A stretch of 64,000 bases of DNA from Escherichia phage phAPEC8, in sequence record NC_020079.1. The stretch is one strand, 5' to 3'. The notes under the pieces were generated by a model. That model searched no databases. It was not told where the DNA came from and saw only the letters and a program-made list of their open reading frames with translations. The translations under genes and the position numbers were made by a program. Positions 34,320-60,985 of this stretch are shown here, one piece after another (position 1 is the stretch's first letter; each line of letters starts with the position of its first letter).

Positions 34320-36995
34320 ATGTTTCCAATTCCAATATTTACTATTATGACCAGCACTGGTGTCGTTCCTCTGCCAGCAGGTATTGTTAAAAAAGTAATC
34401 ACTTTAGATTACCCAGATAATGCTGGTAATTCTAACAGCAGTTTAGCAATTTTGCTTAATGATGGTAGATTGTTTACTCAAGGCGCAAACCTTTTTGGTG
34501 AGATTGCAGATGGAACTCGTAGTGCACGATTCAATAATTTCCACTTAGCTTCTACTGTAGTAGCGGATGTGTTTACCGCAGATCGTTGTTTTGTTATTAA
34601 AACTAACAGTGGGGGATGGCAATATTCAGGATTGACAGCAGGATTGGTAGGATCTATAGCAGCAGGTGGTACGGACGCATGTGTAACTACTTGGACCAGC
34701 TTTCCATCTGTAATAACAGGGACTATCTCTTTAGCCAATCTTAAAGAGGTTAAGGGAGGATATAACAACACTCTCTGGTTAATGAATAGTGGTGTTCTTT
34801 ACGGATCTGGTCAAAACACAGTAGGCAGTTTAGGTGCAAGTACTACTAACGAAGTTTCTACTCCTCGTCAGATAACAAGTGCAGCAGTTGCTTTTGATGC
34901 AGGTTACAACCAATGCTCTTATGTCAACAATGTGGGAACCTTGCGTGTTTGTGGAGCTAGTAAAGGTTTAGCAGGTAATAATAACACAACAACAGCTTTT
35001 GTCAATGCCAAGATATCCGCTACTGAAACAGTGTATGTCAAAGATTACATCAATACAGTTTCCCAGACAATAGTTGTAGGAGATACCTCCGGTGGCACGG
35101 GTGCAGTAAACTACTTATATGTTAGATCTAATACAGAAACAACCTACACTAAACTGGATACCTTTGCAGCAGGTTTCTCAACATGGAAATTTCCACCAAG
35201 CCGCCACTCTTTTTTCGTTGGGATCAATAATTCCTTGTGGGCTATTGGTAAGAACTACACTGCAAACTTAGGTTTGGGGTATGATTCTGCGAGCGGAGAT
35301 CCACTTCAAGTGGGAAAACCAGTTAAACCTGAAGGAGTGGGTTCCTGGGATATAAACAAGCTCACAAGCGTTCATACGCTGAATATGGATGTTACTAACC
35401 AATTAGGTTATCAAGGAACCTTTTTCGTTTATAATGGAGATATGTATTATTCCGGTATTTGGAAAGATGGAAAAGCCTCGTATCTGTTCAATAGTGGTCT
35501 AAACTATAATAAATTCACACCAATAGCAAGCTCCGTGATTACGGGTGATATTCTGGCAACTGGCTTAACTACGGATTCTTTAGGAATTTGTATTGTAGGT
35601 GGAACTAAACAGTTGACACATTCTGTTAGCCCAGAAGGAGGTAAACTTTTCAATATTAAATATACTTCTTCTGCCCCTGCAAACATGACAATATCGTCTA
35701 CTGGTTTAATGACTTTCCATGCAGAAGGTGGTTTTGATGCAGGTATGACAGCCTTAAACGCTGAAGGAACAACTTTATCAGATACCTCTGGAGGATATGC
35801 TTCAACATTGAGTGTTTACACCCCTAGCTTATCTGCGATGGATGTAGGAACAACACAAACAATGGTAGCAGAAATAACGCCAACAGGAGCAGCAAGCTTA
35901 CCTGGCATGGTTGTTGAGTATTTCTCTAATGACCCTACGGTAGCAACAGTTGACCCCGTTACAGGCGTTATTACAGCGGTTGCTGATGGAGGTTGTCGTA
36001 TCGGTTGTAGAGCAACTTATCAAGGTGTGGTAACTGCCGAAGATAGTTCTTATCTCACAGTGAATGCTGTGGTGATTGTGATGGATTATGATTTGACGCA
36101 AGAAACTATTCCGGCGGATGTAAAGGTCAACAGGAGTAACCGTTATGCCAGGGCTTCTGGAGATATCCTTGTACCTACAGAGAGTTCTGCTCCCGTAGCA
36201 CCTTTAGAATATGTTGGTACAACTCCACAAGGTAGACGTGTTGTAGCAGCCAACCGTACACATATCTTTATCAACAATAACTTGACAACAGCTTCCCCGT
36301 GGTTGAAGACGAACTTGACAGTCACAGCATCAACAATCAACTCTCCGGTTGGAACTACGGCTAACACTTACAAGTTAACACCTTCTACAACTTCAGGACA
36401 ACATATTTTATCAGCAGTGAATACAGCTTCTGATATTACAGCAGGTAAGCACTGGGCGGCATCCGTATTCTTGAAGCCAGATGGGATCACTAAAGTGAAA
36501 CTCAAATTGACTTCAGGAGATGAGATTAACGAAGGGACTTATGATCTTGTAGCTGGAACATTTACAGGTGCAGATGCAAACATAATCGATATGGGGAATG
36601 GTTGGTATCGTGTAATTCTACACAAAGTGACAGTTGCCAAACAAGCATCTATAACCTATGAGATTATAGCTTTGAATGCAAGTGGATCAGACACTTTCGC
36701 AGGAGATGGTACGGCAGGTCTTATTGCTTGGGTTCCACAGCTTGAGATGGGGGATATGACAAATCCAGTTTGGGCGGGGACACCATTTGTTTGTTCTTAT
36801 GCACGAGACACTACCAGTGCTGTTACCTTCACTATTCCTAAGAATGGACATACTGGCGTGGACATTTACCACACTGATGGTACTGTGCAACGAGAGGTCT
36901 TCACTGGTACAGCTACAACTTGGATGTTGACGTTCACCGCCGCAAGTGCGGATTGGGGATCGAAGTTCATTACAGGTTTGAAATATTACGACTAA
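34320..36995 (+). CDS. tail fibre/adhesin protein with Ig-like (Big_2-type) domain
   Basis: 891 aa; segment VVEYFSNDPTVATVDPVTGVITAVADGGCRIGCRATYQGVVTAEDSSYLTVNAVV resembles a bacterial Ig-like group 2 domain; last gene of the plus-strand arm. Confidence 0.5.
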   Translation: MFPIPIFTIMTSTGVVPLPAGIVKKVITLDYPDNAGNSNSSLAILLNDGRLFTQGANLFGEIADGTRSARFNNFHLASTVVADVFTADRCFVIKTNSGGWQYSGLTAGLVGSIAAGGTDACVTTWTSFPSVITGTISLANLKEVKGGYNNTLWLMNSGVLYGSGQNTVGSLGASTTNEVSTPRQITSAAVAFDAGYNQCSYVNNVGTLRVCGASKGLAGNNNTTTAFVNAKISATETVYVKDYINTVSQTIVVGDTSGGTGAVNYLYVRSNTETTYTKLDTFAAGFSTWKFPPSRHSFFVGINNSLWAIGKNYTANLGLGYDSASGDPLQVGKPVKPEGVGSWDINKLTSVHTLNMDVTNQLGYQGTFFVYNGDMYYSGIWKDGKASYLFNSGLNYNKFTPIASSVITGDILATGLTTDSLGICIVGGTKQLTHSVSPEGGKLFNIKYTSSAPANMTISSTGLMTFHAEGGFDAGMTALNAEGTTLSDTSGGYASTLSVYTPSLSAMDVGTTQTMVAEITPTGAASLPGMVVEYFSNDPTVATVDPVTGVITAVADGGCRIGCRATYQGVVTAEDSSYLTVNAVVIVMDYDLTQETIPADVKVNRSNRYARASGDILVPTESSAPVAPLEYVGTTPQGRRVVAANRTHIFINNNLTTASPWLKTNLTVTASTINSPVGTTANTYKLTPSTTSGQHILSAVNTASDITAGKHWAASVFLKPDGITKVKLKLTSGDEINEGTYDLVAGTFTGADANIIDMGNGWYRVILHKVTVAKQASITYEIIALNASGSDTFAGDGTAGLIAWVPQLEMGDMTNPVWAGTPFVCSYARDTTSAVTFTIPKNGHTGVDIYHTDGTVQREVFTGTATTWMLTFTAASADWGSKFITGLKYYD

Positions 36996-36996
36996 T

Positions 36997-37031
36997 AAAA
37001 AAGGGAACCCGCAAAGGTTCCCTTTTCTTTT
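36997..37031. terminator. bidirectional intrinsic terminator at the convergence of plus and minus transcription arms
   Basis: A6 (36997-37002), stem GGGAACC/GGTTCCC (37003-37022), then TTTTCTTTT; flanked by U/A tracts on both sides so it can serve either strand. Confidence 0.65.
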
Positions 37032-37058
37032 ATAAAAACTCTTTATAAATCAATAAGA

Positions 37059-37946
37059 TTAGAATGGGATATCATCGTCGAAGTCCATTGGAGGTTCTTC
37101 TTGATTGCTTGGAGTTGGTTCTGGTTGTGGTTCAGGTTTCTTCTCTTCTTTCTTCTCTTCTTTCTTAGGTTGTTCTGCGGAACCACGAATGGCAGCAGCA
37201 ACTTTATCAGACAGAGCCAGAACTTTACGAGCAGAGTCAATCAGATCTTCTACAGATACAGTCTTAATGGTATGGTCTTTACAAGCATTGAGAATAGCGT
37301 GACCAACAGATGCCCCAAGATCATAATCATTAATATCAACGCCACGAGATTCAGCAATTTCAGATTTCAGCGTGACAGTTGCAGATTGAACAACCCCAGC
37401 GATATCGAAAGCATCGCCTTTAACACCATTACGAATCAGTTCCAGTGCACCATTTACTGCGTGACCAGTTTCCAGACCTACAGTATCACGTTTTTTATAG
37501 GACTGCTTAGGAGCAGCATCGTTGGAACCTTTATTGCCAGAAGATTTGTTAGACTTCTGAACACCATCGGTAGACAATACTGTAATACGAGATTTTTTAG
37601 TATTGTAGTAAGTCTTACCGCCTTTATTATCAACGCGATCAATATCAATACTTACTTCTACACCTTTTTCAATAGTGATCCAATTATCACCTTCTTTGAC
37701 TTGCAGGTTTTCATAACCTTCTTTCAGTTCAATGTCACCAAGAGAAATCCAAACACCTTTCTCATCTGGTTTAGCACCTTTCTCTTTCAGAACAAGAGAA
37801 GCTCGGTGAGTTGAAACAATCGTTTTCCCTTCCCAATGAAAAGTTTTAGGTTCAGCGAATTTATCCAGTTTAACGTAGTCTACGATACCAGTTGCATAAG
37901 TTACGGTTTTGCCTTTACGATCAGTTTCAGTATTAATTACGGACAT
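37059..37946 (-). CDS. ssb: single-stranded DNA-binding protein with E. coli SSB-type C-terminal tip
   Basis: 295 aa; C-terminus ...SNQEEPPMDFDDDIPF matches the acidic protein-interaction tip of E. coli SSB (PMDFDDDIPF, from memory); disordered Lys/Glu/Pro-rich linker precedes it. Confidence 0.6.
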   Translation of the reverse strand: MSVINTETDRKGKTVTYATGIVDYVKLDKFAEPKTFHWEGKTIVSTHRASLVLKEKGAKPDEKGVWISLGDIELKEGYENLQVKEGDNWITIEKGVEVSIDIDRVDNKGGKTYYNTKKSRITVLSTDGVQKSNKSSGNKGSNDAAPKQSYKKRDTVGLETGHAVNGALELIRNGVKGDAFDIAGVVQSATVTLKSEIAESRGVDINDYDLGASVGHAILNACKDHTIKTVSVEDLIDSARKVLALSDKVAAAIRGSAEQPKKEEKKEEKKPEPQPEPTPSNQEEPPMDFDDDIPF

Positions 37947-37962
37947 TATTATCTCCTCTACA

Positions 37963-38355
37963 TTACATTAATTTTGCACAGAAAGAGCGGAGTCTTTCCA
38001 TATCATCTTGCTCTAACAGGTATTTACCTTTACCTATTCCAACTCCAATTTCACCATTAGGAAAATGAACTATTTGCACTGGGAAACCTCCGAGTTTAAT
38101 TGTGGCAGCTTTGCCTTCTTCGTCTATAACGTTTCGGATTGTATCTTGCAGTGAAATGAATTCTTTGTTTGTAACAGTGGTTTCAATTATTTCAGATGTT
38201 TCGACACGAGCAGTTAGCTTCTTGTTTCCACCTTGAATAACCAAAATTTGAAAATAAAAAGAGTTGTCAAGACCTACAACATTTTTCTCAACTAGTGTCA
38301 AACTGGTATAGTTTCCATAAACAGTTTCAACAGCTATCTTAGAACGTTCAGTCAT
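37963..38355 (-). CDS. hypothetical protein
   Basis: 130-aa ORF between the SSB and nucleotidyltransferase genes; no recognisable motif. Confidence 0.45.
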   Translation of the reverse strand: MTERSKIAVETVYGNYTSLTLVEKNVVGLDNSFYFQILVIQGGNKKLTARVETSEIIETTVTNKEFISLQDTIRNVIDEEGKAATIKLGGFPVQIVHFPNGEIGVGIGKGKYLLEQDDMERLRSFCAKLM

Positions 38356-46569: not shown

Positions 46570-47520
46570 CTACAAACTTTCAATAACCTGGCGTCGCAAC
46601 TCGTTTGCATCTGCCAGATTATAATGTGTTCGAACATGTTCAGCCAAGAACAAGCCACGATCTTCCCGATAGTTTGGATTGCGAAGAAGCTTAACAATTT
46701 CGTAATGCCATTCTGCTTTATTCTCTGCGTAAGCAACAGCGCGAGCATCTACAGGGTTAAAATAAGGTAATACCTTAGAACAAACAATTGGAATACCTTT
46801 TGCTCCAGCTTCCAGGATTTTGAGATTACTTTTACAATTATTAAAATCGTTATCTACCAAAGGAGCTATAGCAATAGCATGACTTTCGTAAACACTCATG
46901 TAATTATCTAAATCTTTTACAGCGGCTTTATATTTGGCATTTGGTAAATTTCTGCGAATCTTAATCCACTCTTGTCCTGTGATGCTTTGTGATGCTTCAT
47001 ATCCCGCAATAGTAAGAAGTTCATCATCGAAAGTATTAGAGACTAGTCGTAAATCGGGTTCGTGACTAGCACCGCCAGCCCATACAACAGGGGTACCGGA
47101 TGAACGATCATTTGACAAAGTGAATTGTCCGCTATCAAAAGGAAGTGCATTTCGGATCACAACAACATTCCTATTTAAGTGGCGGATCTTATATGCCAAA
47201 TATTCCGTAGTCACAATAACCACATCAGCAAGCTTAACCATAGCTACAATAGCATGAGTGTTTGACTCGTATAGACTTGCTAAATAATGTTCTGGATTGA
47301 GTTGGTAGAAATCATCTAAATCTACAACAATCTTAACACCTTGACGTTTCAAAGATAAAACGTATTCTGCACCTTTAGAGTGGATACGGTTAAACACAAC
47401 AACATCTTTCTTAGGTTGAATATTATTGTTGTTAAAGGGCATAACAATACGATGATAGTCACAACCGCTATGAGGTTTTGCATCAATTTTTAGTTTAGAC
47501 CATTTTTTTTTATTTGACAT
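46570..47520 (-). CDS. glycosyltransferase, GT-B fold (GT4-like), paralog 1
   Basis: 316 aa; tandem paralog of ORF 45618..46562 with the same conserved blocks (CDYHR, VDLDD, TPVVWAGG, KILEAGAKG). Confidence 0.5.
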   Translation of the reverse strand: MSNKKKWSKLKIDAKPHSGCDYHRIVMPFNNNNIQPKKDVVVFNRIHSKGAEYVLSLKRQGVKIVVDLDDFYQLNPEHYLASLYESNTHAIVAMVKLADVVIVTTEYLAYKIRHLNRNVVVIRNALPFDSGQFTLSNDRSSGTPVVWAGGASHEPDLRLVSNTFDDELLTIAGYEASQSITGQEWIKIRRNLPNAKYKAAVKDLDNYMSVYESHAIAIAPLVDNDFNNCKSNLKILEAGAKGIPIVCSKVLPYFNPVDARAVAYAENKAEWHYEIVKLLRNPNYREDRGLFLAEHVRTHYNLADANELRRQVIESL

Positions 47521-48193
47521 GTGCTAGTGCCTCCTCATAGGAAATTCGGATTTTCCCATTTTTAATATCCTCTAAAGATGCTTTATATTCTTCCCAGTTA
47601 ATCCCAATAGCAGCTTCTTTCTCTTCTTTTGTCAGATTAGCAAAAGGCATAGGATTGTTTCCAAAAACATCGTCTGGGTGGATATAAGCCATGATACGAA
47701 GTGGACAAGGTGTTGCCTGAATACCATGATTCAAACCAGCAGCTTGCAAACGGTGTCCCCATTCAGCATCTTCAAAACCATAACCGTGAGTGTAAGGACG
47801 GAAATAACCCATCTTCTCAACAACGGCACGAGAATACATTGCAAATTGACACATTGCAAGTTCCCAGAGAATAACTTCTCCTTTGCTTCCAACAACTTTA
47901 TCTTTGAAATACTCCGGCATACCAAAGAAATCCCATCCTCCAGAGACAGCTTGATCTACAAAGTATGTTTCCCATCCCTCCATGACTGGGTAGCAATCGT
48001 CGTCAAAAATAAACCAATAATCATAACCTTCTTCATAAAACTGGTGCATAAGTTCATTCCTGGCATAAGCTACACCTTTACGATCTGGATCGTTGAATAC
48101 TCGAAAATCTGCACGTGGATCTGTTACAAGGTAGTCTTTAAGTGGACGGACACCTACAGTGATAACACCCACTCCGATTTTAATATTTTCCAT
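47510..48193 (-). CDS. glycosyltransferase, GT-A fold-like (DxD motif)
   Basis: 227 aa; N-terminal IGVGVITVGVRP and acidic FIFDDDCYP motif resembling the DXD nucleotide-sugar-binding motif. Confidence 0.45.
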   Translation of the reverse strand: MENIKIGVGVITVGVRPLKDYLVTDPRADFRVFNDPDRKGVAYARNELMHQFYEEGYDYWFIFDDDCYPVMEGWETYFVDQAVSGGWDFFGMPEYFKDKVVGSKGEVILWELAMCQFAMYSRAVVEKMGYFRPYTHGYGFEDAEWGHRLQAAGLNHGIQATPCPLRIMAYIHPDDVFGNNPMPFANLTKEEKEAAIGINWEEYKASLEDIKNGKIRISYEEALAHVK

Positions 48194-50087: not shown

Positions 50088-50690
50088 TTATGGACATTCA
50101 TACCATTCTTTTTTACCACCAAAGGCCATCACCACATCGCAAATATCCAGACCAGCTTTACCTACACCATATGCTTTCAGCTTCCATTCCCCATCTTCAC
50201 GAACCAGCGAAGCCACGTGGCAGATTGTGTTGCCAGCTACTTCAGGAGCCAGGAAGTCAAAATCCAGAATTTCCACATTGCGCTCGGAGTCGAAGATTTT
50301 AAGCATACCTTCAGAAGCATGACCAAAACGTTTCAGACCTGTATCATCATCAATGGTCAGAACAAAGGCAATCTCTTGTGCATCAGGAGAGATTTTAGCC
50401 AGAGTAATATCAATCTGCTCCATGCTGCCAGTTCCATCACGAACATCGTCACCAGCGAAGGTAGAACGTTCAGGATCAAACTTGTTAGCATAGCAAACCA
50501 GATGACGTGCAGACAGCATTTCAGGATTGCCAGCGGCATTATGACGACAAACCAGTGCACTTACATCCAGATCCAGTTTAGAATCAGATTTCCAAGAGAA
50601 TTCCAGGCGCAGTTCTTTCAGAGCCGGAGCAACTTTCTTCAGGGAAATTTTTTCGCTAGAACCTTTTTTCAGGGAAATTTTATCAGTCAT
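50088..50690 (-). CDS. TerD-family protein (tellurium-resistance TerD/TerZ/TerE-like)
   Basis: 200 aa; alignable block-by-block with E. coli TerD as recalled: ISLKKG..ISLKK, LDLDVSAL, AGDDVRDGTGS, IAFVLTIDD, FG...G, GEWKLKAYGVGKAGL. Confidence 0.8.
   Translation of the reverse strand: MTDKISLKKGSSEKISLKKVAPALKELRLEFSWKSDSKLDLDVSALVCRHNAAGNPEMLSARHLVCYANKFDPERSTFAGDDVRDGTGSMEQIDITLAKISPDAQEIAFVLTIDDDTGLKRFGHASEGMLKIFDSERNVEILDFDFLAPEVAGNTICHVASLVREDGEWKLKAYGVGKAGLDICDVVMAFGGKKEWYECP
50638..50681 (-). repeat. 14-bp direct repeat (TTCAGGGAAATTTT x2, 30-bp period) at the 5' end of the TerD-like gene
   Basis: Two identical copies at 50638-50651 and 50668-50681 encode the duplicated KISLKK peptide at the TerD N-terminus; a similar sequence opens the vWA gene. 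Confidence 0.5.
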
Positions 50691-50975: not shown

Positions 50976-51204
50976 TTCTTCCTCCTAATGTTATCTCCGG
51001 TTTGTATATACGAAGAATTATAGCATTTTCATTTTCTTTGTCAACCCATTCTTCATAATCGGGCCATACATGAATCTCTACTCTACTTACAATATCTTCC
51101 ATCCGCACAATCCCAATGAAATACTCTTTGAGACTGCGCATAATGAAAGCTTCTCTCTCGCGCCAATAATTTTCTACGACTTGAGAGGCAAGCTCGTCGA
51201 TCAT
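50956..51204 (-). CDS. hypothetical small protein
   Basis: 82-aa ORF between the vWA and paralog B genes; start overlaps the vWA stop. Confidence 0.4.
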   Translation of the reverse strand: MIDELASQVVENYWREREAFIMRSLKEYFIGIVRMEDIVSRVEIHVWPDYEEWVDKENENAIILRIYKPEITLGGRSVKLRN

Positions 51205-51995
51205 TTTTTAGCACCTACTTTAACAACCCACTCTCCGAACTCTTCAGATAAGAGTTTGTCATAAAGCTCTGAATCTGTCAAGTCTAAATCTTTAATGCCA
51301 ATGAAACCAACATTATCATAAGCATTTGCCAGTTCTTTCAGGAAGCCAAACTTCTCATTACCAACGCCAACCATGAACCAATAAATAGGTTTATTCTTAT
51401 TCTCTTCGATAAGACGACGAACAGCACTAGGATCACCATTCTCACCATCCGTTTGGAAGAATACAACACCAGGGGTAACGTCAGCACCTGGTTCAGATAC
51501 AGCTACAACCTTTTCACGCTCTACAGATACTGTTTCAGTTTTACCAAGCAGACGATTAAAGAAGCCTTTCTTTGGAGCCTCCTCTTGTACCACTTGTTTA
51601 GTGGTAATATATTTGGTAACAGTGCCAAAATACTCGTCGTAGATATCTGCCATTACAGGGGCGTAGTTTGTTCCACCTCCGATACGAACATTACGCATAC
51701 ATTTACCAACATAATCATCGTAAACGTCTGCTGTTGCTGGGGTAAGCTCTTGAGAACTCGTATTAAAGGCCCACATATCAATTTGTTCATTATCGTCGAA
51801 CAGCATACCAAAAGGAAGCAGTTTACCTACAAAATCACTCACTACCCCACTAGCATATAGACCATGCATACTACCAGAAATATCTAGAGCACATGCTACA
51901 CGAAGAACAATCTTACCTTCATTCAGGTTCTTATTCTTTTTCAGAGAGAAAGCAAGGTTTTCTTGACGTTTTTTCAGGCTGATTTTCTCGGACAT
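51201..51995 (-). CDS. von Willebrand factor A domain protein (TerY-like context) with TerD-like N-terminal peptide
   Basis: 264 aa; MIDAS motif DISGSM, GGTNYAP and TDGENGD; N-terminus MSEKISLKK...FSLKK echoes the TerD N-terminal repeat. Confidence 0.65.
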   Translation of the reverse strand: MSEKISLKKRQENLAFSLKKNKNLNEGKIVLRVACALDISGSMHGLYASGVVSDFVGKLLPFGMLFDDNEQIDMWAFNTSSQELTPATADVYDDYVGKCMRNVRIGGGTNYAPVMADIYDEYFGTVTKYITTKQVVQEEAPKKGFFNRLLGKTETVSVEREKVVAVSEPGADVTPGVVFFQTDGENGDPSAVRRLIEENKNKPIYWFMVGVGNEKFGFLKELANAYDNVGFIGIKDLDLTDSELYDKLLSEEFGEWVVKVGAKK

Positions 51996-53395: not shown

Positions 53396-53595
53396 TACTC
53401 CTCCTCCTCCTCATTGAAGTCAATATCTGCAAGGAGTTCGAATTTACGGAAGTTACGACAACCTTCATAAATATAACAATCACGACAAACTGCTAGAACA
53501 CTTGGGGGATATATGCCTCCCATCGGTGCGAATCGTTTTTCGTCATCATAACGGACACCAATGTCTTCATCAATTATATAGATACGGATTCTCAT
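53395..53595 (-). CDS. small acidic Cys-containing protein
   Basis: 66 aa ending in NEEEEE; start overlaps the upstream gene stop. Confidence 0.4.
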   Translation of the reverse strand: MRIRIYIIDEDIGVRYDDEKRFAPMGGIYPPSVLAVCRDCYIYEGCRNFRKFELLADIDFNEEEEE

Positions 53596-54704
53596 TTACC
53601 AAGCCCTCGTTTCACAGCAGCTACCATCCCGTCTTCCAGAGATTGAACTTCATTAATATAATCAACACGAGCAGCACGGGCTTCCGTATTGATGCGGTTA
53701 GTTTCTTCCAACATCTTAACCAAGTTTTCCTGATCGTGACGCAGAGTTTCAATATCCAACACTTGACGGTTAGCCAGTGCTGCTGCTTCGATCTGATTCT
53801 GTGTGGCAAGATCGCTACCCAGTTTAATTGCCAGGTTAAATTCATCAAGAACGTTATTCTGCGTCTCTGCTGCTTTCATTTGACGTAAGCTCTCGATATA
53901 CATTGAGAAGTTAGCAGAGTAAGCAGGAATAACATTATTTACTATGTTACGCGCAGATCGCATTAAGCTTGCAGAAACTTTTTGCATACCTTGTACACGC
54001 GGTCCCATTTGGACACACAGTAGGCGCAATGCTTTTAAATCTGCAATACGAATCTCCAGAAGATCCAAAGTATCTCGGATCACTTGTCGCTGTTCTACTG
54101 CATCTTCTGGAAGAGCAGCCAAAGCTTGTTCTTCTTTTTCATAGGTTGCTGTTAGAAGCTGCATATCTCGGTTCAAACTTGCAGCATATTGTCCAATAGC
54201 TTGATGTAGCTTTTCAAGATATACCAAGGAATCTTCTTCTTTGCGAATATCCATTTGAAGGTTCTTTACCAACTCTTCAATACGGTTATTAACATTATCA
54301 AACTCCCCAAACAGATCTTCTTTCATACCCATAACTTTTTTAATGAGTTTAGTAATACCCTTGCTTTGTTTAATAGAGTTTGGATCAAGTTGTTTTGCCT
54401 GTTTAATCAAAGCTGTGAGTCGTTCACTCATCTGATCGCCTTGATTACTACGTTGATGTTTTAATACCTCGGCATTCAAGGAACGCAAGGTTGTTCCTGC
54501 CTCTGCCCCAATCTCTTCAATCTCTTGTCGGGTCATAGAAGGCAAAACTGGAACTTCTTGCGGTGCCGCTGGTGCATAAACAGGACTGGCATCTAACACG
54601 CTTGGAGCGAATACAGATTTACTTGCATCGGTTGTTGCAGCAAATACGCTCATTTCAGGCTTCTTCTGACCACCAGTAGCTGCTTTTAAAAATGGACTTG
54701 TCAT
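53592..54704 (-). CDS. coiled-coil protein, TelA-like (toxic anion resistance family) candidate
   Basis: 370 aa, predominantly helical/coiled-coil; TelA assignment rests on size, composition and proximity to TerD/TerC/vWA genes, not on a verified signature. Confidence 0.35.
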   Translation of the reverse strand: MTSPFLKAATGGQKKPEMSVFAATTDASKSVFAPSVLDASPVYAPAAPQEVPVLPSMTRQEIEEIGAEAGTTLRSLNAEVLKHQRSNQGDQMSERLTALIKQAKQLDPNSIKQSKGITKLIKKVMGMKEDLFGEFDNVNNRIEELVKNLQMDIRKEEDSLVYLEKLHQAIGQYAASLNRDMQLLTATYEKEEQALAALPEDAVEQRQVIRDTLDLLEIRIADLKALRLLCVQMGPRVQGMQKVSASLMRSARNIVNNVIPAYSANFSMYIESLRQMKAAETQNNVLDEFNLAIKLGSDLATQNQIEAAALANRQVLDIETLRHDQENLVKMLEETNRINTEARAARVDYINEVQSLEDGMVAAVKRGLGK

Positions 54705-55291
54705 TCTTCATTCTCCTCTTCTGCATCTCTTATATATGGTGAAACACCGTACTCTTTAGCTACTTTAACCCAATCGTCCCATTTATACAACCATAATTTT
54801 CCTTCGGTCCCTTCTTTATCTGATTTCAACCACATATTAGGTTGCTTACCTGGGTACATGCGATTAGGTTTACGATTATAACCTCTAACACATCTTGTCG
54901 CAAACCCATCTACCAGAACAAGAACATATTTATATTCGTGGTTCAACGGCTCTTTGGAAGTGGCTTTAGGATTAGCCCCTAATTCTGCTGCCAGTTTTTG
55001 CCAATGAGCACCGTGCCTACTAAACTTACCCATACAACCATCAATAGCATGAGCAATTTCGTGCTTCATTGTGTCCACGATCATATCTCTTGTGGAGTTC
55101 TTATGCAAGTGCCAATTTACAACAACAATTTTATCTCGGTAGTTGCACCAACCGAAAGAGTTATTCACTTTGTTTCTAACACAAGCTTTATATCCTGCTT
55201 CACGTAACATGTTGTAGTAAACAGGAAAATCTTCTTTTATTTCCTGCATCACTTCCCACCACAAGAGTTGCAAGTCTCTCTCGGTATGCAT
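54701..55291 (-). CDS. SprT-like zinc metalloprotease domain protein
   Basis: 196 aa; HEIAHAIDG (HExxH) followed 8 residues later by HGAHW, the SprT-family pair of motifs. Confidence 0.6.
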   Translation of the reverse strand: MHTERDLQLLWWEVMQEIKEDFPVYYNMLREAGYKACVRNKVNNSFGWCNYRDKIVVVNWHLHKNSTRDMIVDTMKHEIAHAIDGCMGKFSRHGAHWQKLAAELGANPKATSKEPLNHEYKYVLVLVDGFATRCVRGYNRKPNRMYPGKQPNMWLKSDKEGTEGKLWLYKWDDWVKVAKEYGVSPYIRDAEEENEE

Positions 55292-55294
55292 AAC

Positions 55295-55888
55295 TTACAC
55301 CTTAAAAGCGAAATGCGTGGTCGTGGCTTCAAAATCAGGGCCAGATAAACTTGCACTGAAATCTGAAATATTTGTAATTAAAAAGCTTTTATGCATACCT
55401 AACACAGCCACGCTTTCAATATCTTCTACTAACATTTCAATCATGTTAGAAACATGGCTGAACGTATAGTTTTGTTTTTTGATGGTGTAGAAAGAAAGAC
55501 TCCCACCTGCTGTATAAGATACCTCTTCAAAATCTTTAATCGTATATTGTGTACCATCAGTAAAGAAAATGGTAGCTTTATTAGTAGCACGTTTCTTGTT
55601 TTTTGGTCCTTTTTTACGTTTACTGCGAGTAGGCAAACCGTTTGGGAACACCGTAGCTACAAATTCTTCAGGGGAAACCTCCTTACCGAAATCATAATCG
55701 TAAGAAACAGCGTCTATACACTCGTCGTCTTCATTTTTAAAATAATGAAAATAGGGCCAATTTGAGAGATTATCGAGCATCTTATGCGCATCCACAACAG
55801 AGAACGTATCCCTCAAAGCACGTGTGATTTGCAAAGCATTAGGCAAACTTTTAACACCTGTAATGGAAGTACGAATAGAAATTGTCAT
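55295..55888 (-). CDS. hypothetical protein
   Basis: 197-aa ORF with a basic central patch (RSKRKKGPKNKKRATNK). Confidence 0.45.
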   Translation of the reverse strand: MTISIRTSITGVKSLPNALQITRALRDTFSVVDAHKMLDNLSNWPYFHYFKNEDDECIDAVSYDYDFGKEVSPEEFVATVFPNGLPTRSKRKKGPKNKKRATNKATIFFTDGTQYTIKDFEEVSYTAGGSLSFYTIKKQNYTFSHVSNMIEMLVEDIESVAVLGMHKSFLITNISDFSASLSGPDFEATTTHFAFKV

Positions 55889-56874: not shown

Positions 56875-56916
56875 AAGTCTCTCCTATAAAATAGCCTCCC
56901 GAAGGAGGCTCATCTA

Positions 56917-57891
56917 TTAAACAGCAGCTTCTTCTTTTTCAGGGAAGATAAAGCTTGCAATAACACCAAGAGCTAATGTGCCTAGAACAATCATCAGACT
57001 TACGTTAGGGGAAATATCATGCGGGAGGAATGACCACTTGGCATGAAGTGTTTCACCGAACGGGTGATACATAAGTTTAGCACCGACAAATACCAGAACC
57101 ACAGCAACAGCTTTCTCTAAGTGAACCAGATATTTCACAGCCACACTTAACACAAAGAAAAGTGCACGTAAACCAAGAACAGCCATCAGCATTGCAGAAT
57201 AAACTAGCAGAGGTTCTTGTGTCACACCGATCACAGCCGGAACTGAATCAAAAGAGAAGACAATATCTGTAAGCTCAATAACAAACACACAAAGAAGAGC
57301 AGGAGTTGCATATTTAATACCATTCTTAATGGTGATGAACTTTTCACCATCTAGTGCATTGTGCACAGGCAGAACTTTACCTACTAAACGAACAGCCCAA
57401 TGCTTAGAGTAATCAATATCCTCTTCTTCGTCACCACCTTTGATGATAGCCACGGCAGACCAAGCTACAATCAAACCGAACAACACTTGGACCGACCAAT
57501 GAAGGTTAAACAAAGCGGTCCCTGCTGCAACAAAAATACCTCGGAAGACAATGGCTCCTGCAATCCCCCAAAGTAAAATCTTATGTTGGAGATGTGTGCT
57601 CTTAATTCCAAAGCTTGCAAAAATTGCCATGAACACCATCAAGTTATCTACAGAAAGACTCTTTTCCAACACATAGCCACTTAGGAAAAGCGCGGCAAAC
57701 TCTTTACCATGTTCTACCCAAATGAATGCGTAATATCCTAAAGCTAAAGCAATCCAAAAAACAGACCAAAGCAAAGCAGATTTAATTCCAATTTCTTTAT
57801 TCTCTTTATGACCAAAGAAATCGATACCAATAGACAATGCTAAAATACCAACCAAAACAACTACATCAATAATGGGGAAACCAAGTTGCAT
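56917..57891 (-). CDS. TerC-family integral membrane protein
   Basis: 324 aa, multi-pass hydrophobic; contains EKSLSVDNLMVF and ELTDIVFSFDSVPAVIG, matching the two conserved TerC blocks (SxDN and ExxDxxFxxDSxPA). Confidence 0.6.
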   Translation of the reverse strand: MQLGFPIIDVVVLVGILALSIGIDFFGHKENKEIGIKSALLWSVFWIALALGYYAFIWVEHGKEFAALFLSGYVLEKSLSVDNLMVFMAIFASFGIKSTHLQHKILLWGIAGAIVFRGIFVAAGTALFNLHWSVQVLFGLIVAWSAVAIIKGGDEEEDIDYSKHWAVRLVGKVLPVHNALDGEKFITIKNGIKYATPALLCVFVIELTDIVFSFDSVPAVIGVTQEPLLVYSAMLMAVLGLRALFFVLSVAVKYLVHLEKAVAVVLVFVGAKLMYHPFGETLHAKWSFLPHDISPNVSLMIVLGTLALGVIASFIFPEKEEAAV

Positions 57892-57910
57892 TATTTTCTC
57901 CTTTCTCTTT

Positions 57911-57929
57911 GCGGGGAACCACTCCCCGC
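57911..57929 (-). promoter_or_regulatory. 5'-UTR stem-loop upstream of the TerC-like gene
   Basis: Stem GCGGGGA/TCCCCGC with 5-nt loop, 20 nt upstream of the ATG at 57891 and downstream of a promoter-like element; no U-tract. Confidence 0.3.
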
Positions 57930-57941
57930 CTCATGTGATAC

Positions 57942-57969
57942 ATCTTACTCTATTCTAAAACTTTGTCAA
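57942..57969 (-). promoter_or_regulatory. possible sigma70-like promoter (TTGACA-N16-TAAGAT) upstream of the TerC-like gene
   Basis: Consensus -35 TTGACA (57964-57969) with a weak -10 TAAGAT (57942-57947). Confidence 0.3.
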
Positions 57970-57972
57970 CAC

Positions 57973-58194
57973 TTATTTTGAAGAACTTGAGGAAAAGATC
58001 CCACGTAGTACAGCCATGATAAATGCCACACACACCACAGTCCAGAAGGTGACAGGAACAGTGATATCTGTGTGACCCATCATTTCAACAACGTAGTTAT
58101 AAGCCAGCAGCAGAAGCCATGCTGGAATCATACTAATCAGAAAAGCAATAACAAACACAATAATCACTGCAAGAATACCTGCTAAAACGCCCAT
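57973..58194 (-). CDS. small hydrophobic membrane protein (3 predicted TM segments)
   Basis: 73 aa, almost entirely hydrophobic (ILAVIIVFVIAFLISMI, WLLLLAYNYVV, VTFWTVVCVAFIMAVL). Confidence 0.45.
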   Translation of the reverse strand: MGVLAGILAVIIVFVIAFLISMIPAWLLLLAYNYVVEMMGHTDITVPVTFWTVVCVAFIMAVLRGIFSSSSSK

Positions 58195-58207
58195 AATATT
58201 TCTCCTC

Positions 58208-58681
58208 TTAAAGTTTATAAATAGTCACATCGTGACCTGTTTTTACTAAAGTTTCTTCAATCATCACTTGGATGATAGCCCAATTACCTCCAGCATGTCC
58301 AGCGCCAATCATAGGTAAGCCGATCTTACATTTTTGGTCACGGAGAAGCAAATCGTTAGCCATAGCTATTAGTGCATCGTAAAGTGCATCATAGTCCAAC
58401 TGACGACCTTTAGCATTGTATCCGTAACGGTATTGCCCGTATAGATTATATACCAAAGGGTCTGATTGTTCGTCTGGCACTCCTAAACTAAAACAACCTA
58501 GTTTACTTTGATCACCAGCCATTGTGTCTAAGTCTGCTGCATATGCGTAAGGAAATGCTCGTTTGATTTGTGGGGCAATACCTGCCCCCATATTACACAT
58601 ACAGTTGCAACAATGAGCAATAACAGTTACTTCACCTGCTTTAGCGGCATCAATAAGATTACCTGTTTTCATTTTAAGCAT
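58208..58681 (-). CDS. macro domain protein, TARG1/DarG-like (ADP-ribose-processing hydrolase)
   Basis: Track ORF 58208..58786 trimmed to the ATG with SD AAGGAG just after the upstream stop; motifs VIAHCCNCMCNMGAGIA and GLPMIGAGHAGGNW...VTIYKL parallel human TARG1 (AHCISEDCRMGAGIA, MPRIGCGLDRLQW...ITVYTL, from memory). Confidence 0.65.
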   Translation of the reverse strand: MLKMKTGNLIDAAKAGEVTVIAHCCNCMCNMGAGIAPQIKRAFPYAYAADLDTMAGDQSKLGCFSLGVPDEQSDPLVYNLYGQYRYGYNAKGRQLDYDALYDALIAMANDLLLRDQKCKIGLPMIGAGHAGGNWAIIQVMIEETLVKTGHDVTIYKL

Positions 58682-58694
58682 TTTTAGCTCCTTA

Positions 58695-59522
58695 TTACAG
58701 AATGTGTTGTTTTGTGTAACGATCCAAGAATTCAAAGTTTTCAGCATACTTTGAAATTCGGTTGTAACCTTCTCCCAAGCATCCAAAGAAAAGTTGCTCT
58801 ACATAGTAATGTGGCAATTGGCTAAGAATGATTTTGAAGTCTTCATGATTTTGGCCCATAAGATACTTAATAGGACGAACAAGACACTGTGCATCACGTT
58901 CTTCATTAATCATTTTAACAAACGCTTCCGGTGTATTAATGTAGTTAAAATTCAGTTTAGCTTCGGTATCTGCTTGATTACCTTCATATTTTGCAAAATA
59001 CAGGAAGTAAACATCATTTTTAACTTGATTTTCATTAAGGATCTCAATCAGTTTGTCTTCATGCGTTCCAGTGATATTTACATCATCAATGAATACAAGC
59101 TTCTTATCACCCCAGAATTCTTTGTTACAGTAGAATGTATCCCCATCAATAAGTTTCTTACGACTAGCTTTATCCAAGAAACCATAATCGTTGATATAGC
59201 TAACTTTACGATGAATAATGTCCAGTTCTGCTGAACGACCTTGATCATATTGTGATTGCAACATATTAAAGTAATTAATAAAATGATCTGTCATCATTGT
59301 TGCAGCATTATGCACATGGTTGTAAGGAGAAGGAATGATAACAAATTGTTCCCCAATATGTTTCATTGCCACTTGAGCAAAAAACTGAAGTGCCAATTCT
59401 TTACCCATACGACGCGCGGCTTGGTTACTACCAAATTTCAATTTTGAATAATCTTGGATATCAAAAGTAGCAGTTTCCAGGTCATCAAATTTATTTGCAA
59501 AAATTTGAGTTTGATTACGCAT
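58695..59522 (-). CDS. type I phosphoribosyltransferase-fold protein (PRPP-binding loop)
   Basis: 275 aa; KKLVFIDDVNITGTHEDK matches the PRPP-binding motif (hydrophobic-DD-x-x-TG-x-T) of type I PRTases and PRPP synthetase homologues. Confidence 0.5.
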   Translation of the reverse strand: MRNQTQIFANKFDDLETATFDIQDYSKLKFGSNQAARRMGKELALQFFAQVAMKHIGEQFVIIPSPYNHVHNAATMMTDHFINYFNMLQSQYDQGRSAELDIIHRKVSYINDYGFLDKASRKKLIDGDTFYCNKEFWGDKKLVFIDDVNITGTHEDKLIEILNENQVKNDVYFLYFAKYEGNQADTEAKLNFNYINTPEAFVKMINEERDAQCLVRPIKYLMGQNHEDFKIILSQLPHYYVEQLFFGCLGEGYNRISKYAENFEFLDRYTKQHIL

Positions 59523-60171
59523 TTACAATTTCTCCTCTTTTAAGTTTCTCTAGTAAGTCGTTAGGGTTCTTAATATGACAGAAGTTAAATCCTAAGTCAA
59601 CACATTTTCCATCATATTCTTCACTATCGCCTACGTGCAATACTTCGTGCCCTAACAGAGGGATCGGAGAATACGTGAGCGTGCGAGCAAAGAATCGCGG
59701 ATCTGGTTTACAAAGTAAAGCTTCATCCGAGAAATGGGTGAACTCAAAACAATTCCAACTATCAAACTTACAAGCACGACGCAGGATATCCCCTGATATA
59801 AAGTTGGTATTGCTCTTAATACTCAAATCATAACGTCCCGAAAGATACAGCAAGTACATCGGCAGATCCACGGCTACGTGTGGTGGAAACTTAAGGAACC
59901 ACTGTTCACACTCGAAACGAAGCTTTGCAGACTTCCAAGGTGTTATCCCAAGTTCAGAACCAAGTCTTTCCCAGGCGTATGCTGCACACTCGGCTTTGCC
60001 TTGAAGTGCTGCATTATCCAGTTCCTTTTTGATCTTCTTATAAGCTGCTCTTGCTTCCACTTCCGTAATATCTCCATATTTTGCGATAGTCCAGGCTCGC
60101 ATGTCTGCGTAATTGGAGTTTGCTGTGATCAGTGTGTTCCATACATCAAAAGAGATATGTTTAATAGTCAT
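59515..60171 (-). CDS. HAD-superfamily hydrolase-like protein (putative phosphatase)
   Basis: 218 aa; N-terminal ISFDVWNTLI (motif I-like, Dx(W)xT) and C-terminal LHVGDSEEYD (motif IV GDxxxD); second Asp of motif I is replaced, so assignment is tentative. Confidence 0.4.
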   Translation of the reverse strand: MTIKHISFDVWNTLITANSNYADMRAWTIAKYGDITEVEARAAYKKIKKELDNAALQGKAECAAYAWERLGSELGITPWKSAKLRFECEQWFLKFPPHVAVDLPMYLLYLSGRYDLSIKSNTNFISGDILRRACKFDSWNCFEFTHFSDEALLCKPDPRFFARTLTYSPIPLLGHEVLHVGDSEEYDGKCVDLGFNFCHIKNPNDLLEKLKRGEIVNA

Positions 60172-60172
60172 A

Positions 60173-60778
60173 TTAAGCCCACCATGCGTCTAAGTTAAGA
60201 TTACTGTCCACTACCACTTGTTCTATGTGGTAGCCTTTTATCTGTATCCCACTGTTCAAGAGCATATCATACGCTTCATTGAAACGCAACTTATCTTCTG
60301 CGGAATATAAGCGAGCATTATAAAATCGGTAATCAATTTCTTCAGCATTAGAAGAAATACGGAAGAAGTTTGTTTCTACTTCGGGATCACTTGCTGAAGT
60401 CTTAATGTGAACTTCTCCGTAATTTTCTTTACTTAGATCCATGAAAAGAACACAGGCAACATGTTTAAACATTCGTTCCAGTTTGTAACGAACAACATTG
60501 AAACCTGCATTCTCAAGTTTTTCTACACACTGCAACATTAAAGTAGTGTCGAGATCGCTTTGATACTTTGTTAACATACGATCACGTTGAGACTTTGTAT
60601 CCCGATGTAAATCAATTGTTGTGCATTTGGCACCAATAATCTTAGCTGCTTTCATCAACTCTTCAGAACTAACGTTAGATAAAGTAAGATGAAAGTGGGC
60701 TTTCCACACTTTTTTAGCAGGGACACCAAAAGATTTATCCCCACTATTCGGCATGTTGACTACTACACTATGTTGCAT
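60173..60778 (-). CDS. hypothetical protein (one HxTx motif, possible 2H-phosphoesterase relative)
   Basis: 201 aa; contains HFHLTL but a clean second HxT/Sx motif is missing. Confidence 0.4.
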   Translation of the reverse strand: MQHSVVVNMPNSGDKSFGVPAKKVWKAHFHLTLSNVSSEELMKAAKIIGAKCTTIDLHRDTKSQRDRMLTKYQSDLDTTLMLQCVEKLENAGFNVVRYKLERMFKHVACVLFMDLSKENYGEVHIKTSASDPEVETNFFRISSNAEEIDYRFYNARLYSAEDKLRFNEAYDMLLNSGIQIKGYHIEQVVVDSNLNLDAWWA

Positions 60779-60793
60779 TACTTATCTCCTCAC

Positions 60794-60985
60794 TTAAAAT
60801 GGAAGTCTTTGAAGTTCATCTCCTCCGATATCAAGTAATTTAGCAACATCTCGATCAGAAAGCAACTCTTTTCTTTGTAAAATATCCACAAGGGTTGCAA
60901 GAATGTCCTTAACGTCCCGATCACTGTTCTTCAAAAGTTCTCCTGCCGTCCCTACTCTATCTCCTACAGCAAAATATGTAACCAT
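60794..60985 (-). CDS. hypothetical small protein
   Basis: 63-aa ORF between nrdG and the downstream metabolic genes. Confidence 0.4.
   Translation of the reverse strand: MVTYFAVGDRVGTAGELLKNSDRDVKDILATLVDILQRKELLSDRDVAKLLDIGGDELQRLPF

Follow-up and report, generated by a model that had tools for sequence, protein, structure and literature searches.

Whether three neighbouring enzyme genes of Escherichia phage phAPEC8 act in one pathway or only share a gene string is the question raised by positions 58,208 to 60,171 of the 64,000-nucleotide (nt) stretch of its genome analysed here (NC_020079.1), which we call the window. The genes encode a macro domain protein, a phosphoribosyltransferase (PRTase) of the PRTase_3 family and a hydrolase of the HAD superfamily. 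In a first-pass annotation, the trio was proposed to strip ADP-ribose (ADPR) from phage DNA or proteins and to rebuild nicotinamide adenine dinucleotide (NAD) from it or, equally, to be the biosynthetic arm of a neighbouring Ter-like module. Our preferred reading, to which we give a probability of about one half, is that two functionally separate units share one minus-strand gene string, with the HAD and PRTase_3 genes working for the Ter module and the macro gene standing alone.

The three open reading frames (ORFs) are present on the minus strand, as are all genes in this part of the window. The window belongs to a Phapecoctavirus (Stephanstirmvirinae): over bases 56900-60800 it shares 99.8% identity with Escherichia phage vB_EcoM_ASO2A of that genus, and dozens of related phages match at 90-99%. 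The middle gene (58695..59522) encodes a ComF-like type I PRTase of 275 amino acids (aa) with a full-length match to Pfam PRTase_3 (PF15610; E 1.3e-41, 143 bits against a cutoff of 28.7). The loop for binding phosphoribosyl pyrophosphate (PRPP) that had been noticed in this gene, VFIDDVNITGTHE, is intact, and its residues D146, D147, T151 and G152 are invariant in 53 homologues. By the curated cutoff, the PRPP-binding loop and the type I PRTase fold, the protein is a member of PRTase_3, the Ter-linked family of ComF-like enzymes. A comparison of the PRTase with the PDB gave no sequence relative. Its homologues at 35-79% identity lie almost all on phage or phage-like contigs, and PRTase_3 was found in 155 phage records, ~130 of them from Stephanstirmvirinae.

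When 100,044 bacterial and archaeal species genomes were scanned with the PRTase alignment, whose patterns are too clade-specific, only one locus was returned. This locus (L025; JAEZZU010000022.1, 'MAG: Proteobacteria bacterium OH_PFB_59') is a 13-kb contig 99% identical to this phage and is phage DNA binned into a metagenome-assembled genome. The bacterial context of PRTase_3 was taken from plasmids. Near-identical records have also been deposited as 'Campylobacter', 'Acinetobacter' and 'Pseudomonas' phages, and those host labels are doubtful.

The HAD gene (59515..60171, minus strand) encodes 218 aa and matches PHROG 14393 (E 3e-117); its stop and the PRTase start share an overlap of 8 nt. 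The HAD-like motifs reported at first sight hold up, as motifs I-IV (S-x-D-x-W-x-T, S-N, K-P and G-D-x-x-x-D), with the nucleophile Asp, the S/T, the K and the GDxxxD of the superfamily, are conserved in 17 orthologues. The score against Pfam Hydrolase was below the cutoff (21.2 against 26.4), and the NCBIfam HAD-IA matches were weak.

The HAD and PRTase_3 genes form a dyad. In every locus examined, from ~14 lineages (jumbo and T4-like metagenomic phages, Xanthomonas phage XaC1, Rhizobium phages, Caulobacter phage CcrColossus, rhizobial plasmids and Stephanstirmvirinae), a HAD orthologue lies immediately upstream of PRTase_3 on the same strand and often overlaps it, and the dyad is a conserved unit. 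TerC, TerD, TelA or vWA-TerF-like genes were located within 10 kb of the dyad in Stephanstirmvirinae, in the L003/L034 and L005/L036 groups and at loci L016 and L018. Beyond Stephanstirmvirinae, at least five phage lineages have the dyad inside clusters of TerC, TerD, TelA and vWA-TerF genes. L036 has, in addition, a SprT-like gene at a distance of ~6 kb from the dyad.

In the window, the suspected Ter-like module proved to be real. On the minus strand, we identified a TerC-family integral membrane protein (56917..57891; Pfam TerC, E 3e-40), a SprT-like metalloprotease-domain protein (54701..55291; Pfam SprT-like, E 4e-9), a TelA-like protein (53592..54704; Pfam TelA, E 3e-33), a vWA-TerF-like protein (51201..51995; Pfam PF10138, E 2e-37) and a TerD-domain protein (50088..50690; Pfam TerD, E 3e-28). 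TerC, TerD, TelA and vWA (TerF/TerY-like) genes thus lie together with the PRTase and HAD genes on one strand between 50088 and 60171, as in a Ter system. Ter-associated PRTase and HAD genes were reportedly predicted by Anantharaman, Iyer and Aravind in 2012 to be a biosynthetic module for a 'nucleoside-like metabolite'. The window dyad resembles this module in its Pfam PRTase_3 assignment, in its obligatory HAD partner and in being embedded among TerC, TerD, TelA and vWA-TerF genes. It differs in that the window version is minimal and carries lineage-specific extras, namely the macro gene and the genes of two uncharacterised proteins described below (p201 and tm73), and in the Trp at the Asp+2 position of the HAD protein. 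ATP-grasp, C-C lyase and TerB gave no Pfam match among the ORFs scanned, with the small ORFs at 50.7-53.6 kb scanned only partly. In a later survey, 'nucleobase phosphoribosyltransferases and HAD fold phosphoesterases' are the signal-biosynthesis part of Ter systems, phages included, and a complete Ter set is described in Acinetobacter phage ME3 and 'certain other related smaller tailed phages' (Iyer et al. 2021, PMC7824862). The phage Ter module was there proposed to act in competition with superinfecting phages or in tolerance of host stress (Iyer et al. 2021, PMC7824862). Clusters of terC, terF, terD and telA in phages have also been noted in a Klebsiella phage paper. For the PRTase and HAD genes, being the biosynthetic arm of the Ter-like module is the best-supported reading, and it holds for these two of the three genes.

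The macro protein (58208..58681, minus strand, 157 aa) is a macro domain alone, of the ALC1-like class and of Gln type. The paired motifs of TARG1/DarG-type macro domains that the first-pass annotation had read in this ORF are there, as H23-x-x-N26...G32-A-G34 and G124-A-G126...G131-G132. Pfam Macro (PF01661) was matched at threshold only (22.3 bits against a cutoff of 22), and PHROG 335 was matched with E 1e-54. Full-length phmmer matches to 5e3b, 2fg1, 5m31 and 4j5r place the protein in the macro superfamily. Its best solved relatives were SCO6735 (5e3b; E 1.9e-12) and BT1257 (2fg1; 1.9e-8), then DarG (1.2e-6) and TARG1 (4.9e-6), so that the proposed TARG1/DarG class is right, and the PADLOC DarG model was matched as well (E 2.7e-10). 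Considering these matches and its residues, the protein is, as far as sequence tells, a member of the TARG1/DarG/SCO6735 (ALC1-like) class, yet neither a TARG1 nor a DarG.

The catalytic residues separate it from both. Window Asn26 aligns with DarG Asn22, and window Gln83 aligns with the catalytic Lys80 of DarG, which is equivalent to TARG1 Lys84 (PMC9411070). The score against the NCBIfam DarG equivalog NF048014 was 36.4 bits against a cutoff of 250, and the C-terminal DarT-binding domain of DarG is absent. Compared with DarG, therefore, the class agrees, whereas the catalytic Lys and the DarT-binding domain are missing, and the nearest characterised relative is another protein, Adpp (below). 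At the positions of the TARG1 Lys84/Asp125 dyad the window protein has Gln83 and Ala, as mapped through DarG and SCO6735 rather than by direct alignment with TARG1. The Ala that replaces TARG1 Asp125 in SCO6735 aligns with the Ala of G-A-G-H-A-G-G in the window protein. The correspondence of SCO6735 residues to TARG1 numbering is presumed from the TARG1 sequence and PMC9411070. Residues N79, Q83, G126, G131 and G132 are invariant across the phage macro family.

SCO6735 and BT1257 are similar to the window protein in having Gln for the catalytic Lys, equivalents of Asn27, Gly126 and Gly128 and Ala for TARG1 Asp125. They differ from it in being cellular rather than phage proteins and in sharing only ~30% identity. 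SCO6735 efficiently cleaves the thymidine-linked ADPR that DarT makes on DNA, faster than DarG does, and rescues cells from DarT (PMC9411070). One alternative to the preferred reading keeps the two units and makes the macro protein chiefly a DarG2/SCO6735-like DNA de-ADP-ribosylase, an anti-DarT factor of the AdfM type. The best solved relative is this cleaver of thymidine-linked ADPR, and its essential residues Gln85 and Asn27 (PMC9411070), as well as Gly126 and Gly128, have their equivalents in Q83, N26, G124 and G126. DarG models, from PADLOC and NCBIfam, were also the sole defence-library matches of the protein. AdfM proteins are orphan DarG-like phage macro proteins that defeat DarTG2 (2026, PMC13309987); the window protein shares with them and with DarG the macro class and, as a concept, an orphan phage macro protein countering ADP-ribosylation of DNA. 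However, AdfM retains the DarG-type Lys where the window protein has Gln, and Adpp rather than SCO6735 is the closest characterised homologue by sequence. The out-group relatives described next, which lie in NARP1 operons, also speak against this alternative, which we regard as possible but doubtful.

Adpp of Vibrio phage Gary (KNV71_gp137; L037) shares 40% identity with the window protein (E 8e-35, 157 of 158 residues aligned). It is a demonstrated ADPR-1''-phosphate phosphatase that restores the function of NARP1 (bioRxiv 10.64898/2026.01.28.702374, January 2026). The ADPR-1''-phosphate comes from RES-domain defence proteins (aRES), which phosphorolyse NAD+; NARP1 is unable to use it, and 15% of NARP1 operons carry Adpp (bioRxiv 10.64898/2026.01.28.702374). 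Adpp and the window protein have in common the motifs N-x-Y-G-Q-Y and G-x-G-x-A-G-G and the assignment to PHROG 335 'phosphatase', and TARG1 and SCO6735 are among the best solved relatives of both. On this identity, these motifs and these relatives, the window protein is an Adpp/SCO6735-type enzyme by sequence, with its activity predicted.

We examined the gene contexts of five of the nearest homologues outside Stephanstirmvirinae. In Pseudomonas phage VCM (47% identity to the window protein), the order is prs, one gene, NAMPT, one gene and macro, and a Pakpunavirus (41%) is arranged as VCM is. Vibrio phage Pontus (40%), whose protein is 95% identical to Gary Adpp, has prs, macro and an NAPRT-like gene in a row; this Thalassavirus arrangement, as in Pontus and Gary, is covered by bioRxiv 10.64898/2026.01.28.702374. 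In Vibrio phage SJSY21 (39%), NAMPT is 1.6 kb away with no prs gene in view, and the T-even-like 'Tk.4' protein (38%) stands alone. Three of the five thus lie within prs/NAMPT clusters, with a fourth 1.6 kb from NAMPT. In VCM (L029, 82995-91477), the prs/NAMPT cluster and its Adpp-type macro gene lie 2-3 kb upstream of TelA and vWA genes. This order of macro and then Ter genes, as in the window, may be a hint that a link of NAD/ADPR enzymes with the Ter-like genes of phages recurs.

The NARP1 pair, Adps (a Prs-like pyrophosphokinase) and Namat (an NAMPT-like transferase), was not found around the window protein. In tblastn searches with the Pontus and VCM queries, no Prs-like or NAMPT-like gene was detected in the window or in segments that cover the rest of the genome of EF1-1, a 97%-identical relative. 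The likeness to NARP1 is that PRPP-type chemistry stands beside an Adpp-type macro gene in other phages; the difference is that this phage has neither a Prs-like nor an NAMPT-like protein. Adpp, flanked by Adps and Namat, feeds NARP1, whereas the window macro gene follows the HAD-PRTase_3 dyad, with no Adps and Namat pair within two genes.

A single pathway for all three enzymes, as first proposed, would have the macro protein, the PRTase and the HAD protein, possibly with p201, free ADPR from ADPR-1''-phosphate or ADP-ribosylated targets and recycle it, or nicotinamide, to NAD+ or an NAD-related nucleoside, as a non-canonical analogue of NARP1-AP. Adpp-type macro genes lie elsewhere between PRPP-synthetase-like and NAMPT-like genes, here directly after HAD-PRTase_3, and canonical NARP genes, with which such a pathway would be superfluous, are missing from the phage. 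The macro gene (ATG at 58681) begins only 13 nt after the PRTase stop, with a strong ribosome-binding site (AAGGAG) 7 nt upstream, and several genera of Stephanstirmvirinae retain this arrangement. NAD-related neighbours also occur at other dyads: a gene annotated by its depositors as NMN adenylyltransferase/NUDIX lies 250 bp downstream of a Rhizobium phage dyad, PnuC-type and NadR-kinase-type Pfam matches lie 2-3 kb downstream of the L005 dyad, and other loci have NUDIX and macro genes at a distance of 6-8 kb.

The distribution of the two families, however, is mostly against a macro protein that belongs to the pathway of the dyad, as judged from sequence. Of the ~14 lineages, only Stephanstirmvirinae has the macro gene less than 2 kb from the dyad, so that the adjacency counts as one evolutionary event; a macro gene is 6-8 kb away in two other lineages and absent within 10 kb in the rest. 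By tblastn, 2978 of 50,697 phage records (~6%) carry a member of the macro family, which makes the family ~20 times more widespread than the dyad with its 155 records. Klebsiella-type relatives have two unrelated ORFs, of 127 aa and 188 aa, between PRTase_3 and the macro gene (inserts at L010 9122-10071 and L009 4024-4590, with the 127-aa ORF noted in L010), and the end of the 188-aa ORF overlaps the macro start; p201 is absent in some relatives. The 188-aa ORF has E-x-x-E...E-x-x-D-like motifs ('ETGECADW...LGECADVI') and is MazG-like by eye only. Furthermore, a phosphatase acting on the PRTase product would destroy nicotinamide mononucleotide (NMN) rather than build NAD, and the most frequent recurrent neighbours of the dyad in the examined loci are Ter genes. 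With Adps and Namat missing and the adjacency confined to one subfamily, the claim that the trio strips ADPR and rebuilds NAD is unsupported, and we hold the single pathway to be improbable.

A related proposal is that the dyad and the Adpp-type macro protein, perhaps with p201, in a phage that has neither NARP1 nor NARP2, could be a third route, in which ADPR-1''-phosphate, ADPR and nicotinamide, left over from NAD+-depleting immunity, would be turned into NAD+ or an NAD-derived nucleoside signal. If this were true, the 'nucleoside-like metabolite' of Ter systems would be related to NAD/ADPR. We count this proposal as a long shot.

The three enzymes could also all belong to a Ter-linked pathway, in which the macro protein would trim a phosphate or an ADP-ribosyl-like group from the dyad product or its precursor, or would degrade the equivalent Ter signal of the host. 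The macro gene does lie between the dyad and TerC in one gene string, an orthologous macro gene lies near TelA and vWA genes in VCM as described above, and macro domains bind ligands that contain ribose phosphate (PMC7824862). Against this, the Ter-embedded dyads of five other lineages have no macro gene within 2 kb, with only L016 having one, ~6 kb off; the macro family is mostly in phages that have no Ter genes, and two surveys of the Aravind group, the ones consulted, offer no precedent. We consider such a pathway unlikely.

We return to the reading of two separate units. From the observed gene identities, family membership, conserved residues, operon layout, synteny and distribution, we infer all substrates and biological roles as follows. 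PRTase_3 would join a base to PRPP, giving a ribonucleoside 5'-monophosphate, from which the HAD enzyme would then remove or process the 5'-phosphate, giving a nucleoside-like small molecule. This product most likely serves the phage Ter-like membrane module (TerC, TelA, vWA-TerF, TerD and SprT-like), whose role would be, as proposed, superinfection exclusion or remodelling of the host membrane or stress response. The macro protein most likely hydrolyses ADPR-1''-phosphate to ADPR, like the 40%-identical Adpp, and may also hydrolyse thymidine-linked ADPR on DNA, like SCO6735. It would then act on its own, in counter-defence or clean-up, against RES-type NAD+ phosphorylases or DarT2 of the host, and would not be a step in rebuilding NAD.

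Several points weigh against this reading. An Adpp-type phosphatase in a phage lacking NARP1 has no obvious payoff, a point that also favours the DNA de-ADP-ribosylase since the phosphatase would have no evident downstream use. For that DNA substrate, in turn, the DNA-positioning residues Lys34 and Lys89 of SCO6735 are not kept, being A33 and Gly in the window protein, and the DNA-substrate option is thereby weakened. In nine of the ~14 dyad lineages, no Ter gene lies closer than 10 kb, and the dyad can therefore function in the absence of Ter. The chemistry of PRTase_3 and HAD, the direction of the reaction included, is predicted from sequence. In addition, the Asp+2 general acid of HAD motif I (DxDxT) is replaced by an invariant Trp in 17 of 17 orthologues, which means that the HAD protein may be no simple phosphatase; a plain 5'-nucleotidase role is an assumption, and the family as a whole may not be an ordinary phosphatase. 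Finally, the synteny of macro gene and dyad across several genera of Stephanstirmvirinae, and the fact that Adpp relatives neighbour other PRPP-type enzymes, make a functional link of macro protein and dyad conceivable.

The gene string to which both units belong runs on the minus strand in the order nrdD, nrdG, p63, p201, HAD, PRTase, macro and tm73. It is headed by nrdD (63279-61465), which with nrdG (61468-60998) makes up the anaerobic ribonucleotide reductase genes, according to the annotation of identical genes in ASO2A and EF1-1. Between nrdG and p201 lies the gene of a small conserved protein of 63 aa, p63 (60794..60985; PHROG 17780), which is syntenic in Stephanstirmvirinae loci, and gaps of 12-15 nt were seen among nrdD, nrdG and this 63-aa ORF upstream of p201. 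The p201 gene (60173..60778), encoding an uncharacterised protein of 201 aa, stops 1 nt short of the HAD start. The macro gene is followed immediately by tm73 (57973..58194; PHROG 16065), whose translation is a hydrophobic, predicted membrane protein of 73 aa; it is syntenic with the macro gene in all Stephanstirmvirinae loci.

A promoter and terminator scan placed strong terminators at 63374-63354, upstream of nrdD, and at 56910-56893, after TerC. From nrdD to the end of the macro and tm73 genes, no strong terminator-like site was detected, only weak hairpins, several of them inside coding sequence. TerC has a promoter-like site of its own at 57969-57942, and between this site and the TerC start codon there is a GC-rich hairpin (57901-57929, minus strand; GCGGGGA-GUGGU-UCCCCGC; folding z -2.7). 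The ASO2A annotation has this hairpin of the 5' untranslated region as a terminator; we rejected that role and that of a riboswitch, since no U-tract follows the hairpin and it has no Rfam match. It is probably a stabilising hairpin. A scan of the whole window against Rfam returned no match.

The p201 protein is present in Phapecoctavirus and some relatives. Its family is rare (79 clusters at 50% identity among 1.8 billion proteins) and has the invariant residues H28-x-H30-x-T32, R97-x-K99-x-E101 and E122-x-H124. Two PADLOC 'AbiEi' models were matched over the full length (E 5e-13), and in other proteins the family is fused to NUDIX or HD_4 domains. Its fold relatives are unnamed proteins of phages, Acinetobacter phage ME3 included, and of giant eukaryotic viruses, and its gene neighbourhoods are uninformative T4-like phage contexts. 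Candidate roles are those of an enzymatic orphan-antitoxin-like protein and of an enzyme that processes nucleotides.

Other genes of this phage group are worth recording. Outside the window, EF1-1 (PQ571289) also encodes a Sir2-like NAD-dependent protein (22132-23263), a 180-aa protein annotated 'GTP cyclohydrolase II / riboflavin biosynthesis' (143965-144507), which might be an NADAR-type (AdfN-like) enzyme, and an RNA ligase with an adjacent phosphoesterase (54179-55664); these are further NAD/ADPR-related or repair functions. In the window, two glycosyltransferase-like ORFs lie at 46570-48193 on the minus strand. Their relatives are annotated as glycosyltransferases, and one of the two matches TAGT (TET-associated glycosyltransferase; E 1e-3) weakly and below threshold; a connection to glycosylation of DNA or of the surface is possible. 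The sign of the GC skew flips at ~37 kb (region ~36000-38000), where the genes switch from the plus to the minus strand.

Neither unit is a new kind of system, the Ter assignment dating from 2012 and 2021 and the macro functions from 2022 and 2026. What is specific to this phage is an Adpp-type macro gene that has no NARP1 and directly follows a Ter-linked dyad. The Adpp and anti-DarT macro families, both newly described, thereby gain a large set of phages of E. coli and Klebsiella, which lack NARP1 and are used in therapy collections, and a stand-alone macro protein raises the question of its purpose, be it detoxification of ADPR-1''-phosphate, reversal of DNA ADP-ribosylation or something else. 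As for the HAD-PRTase_3 dyad, it is predicted to supply the small molecule of Ter systems, whose chemistry has been a question since the 1990s. A lytic phage able to grow on E. coli K-12 here carries a compact version of it, which makes this phage convenient for identifying the product.

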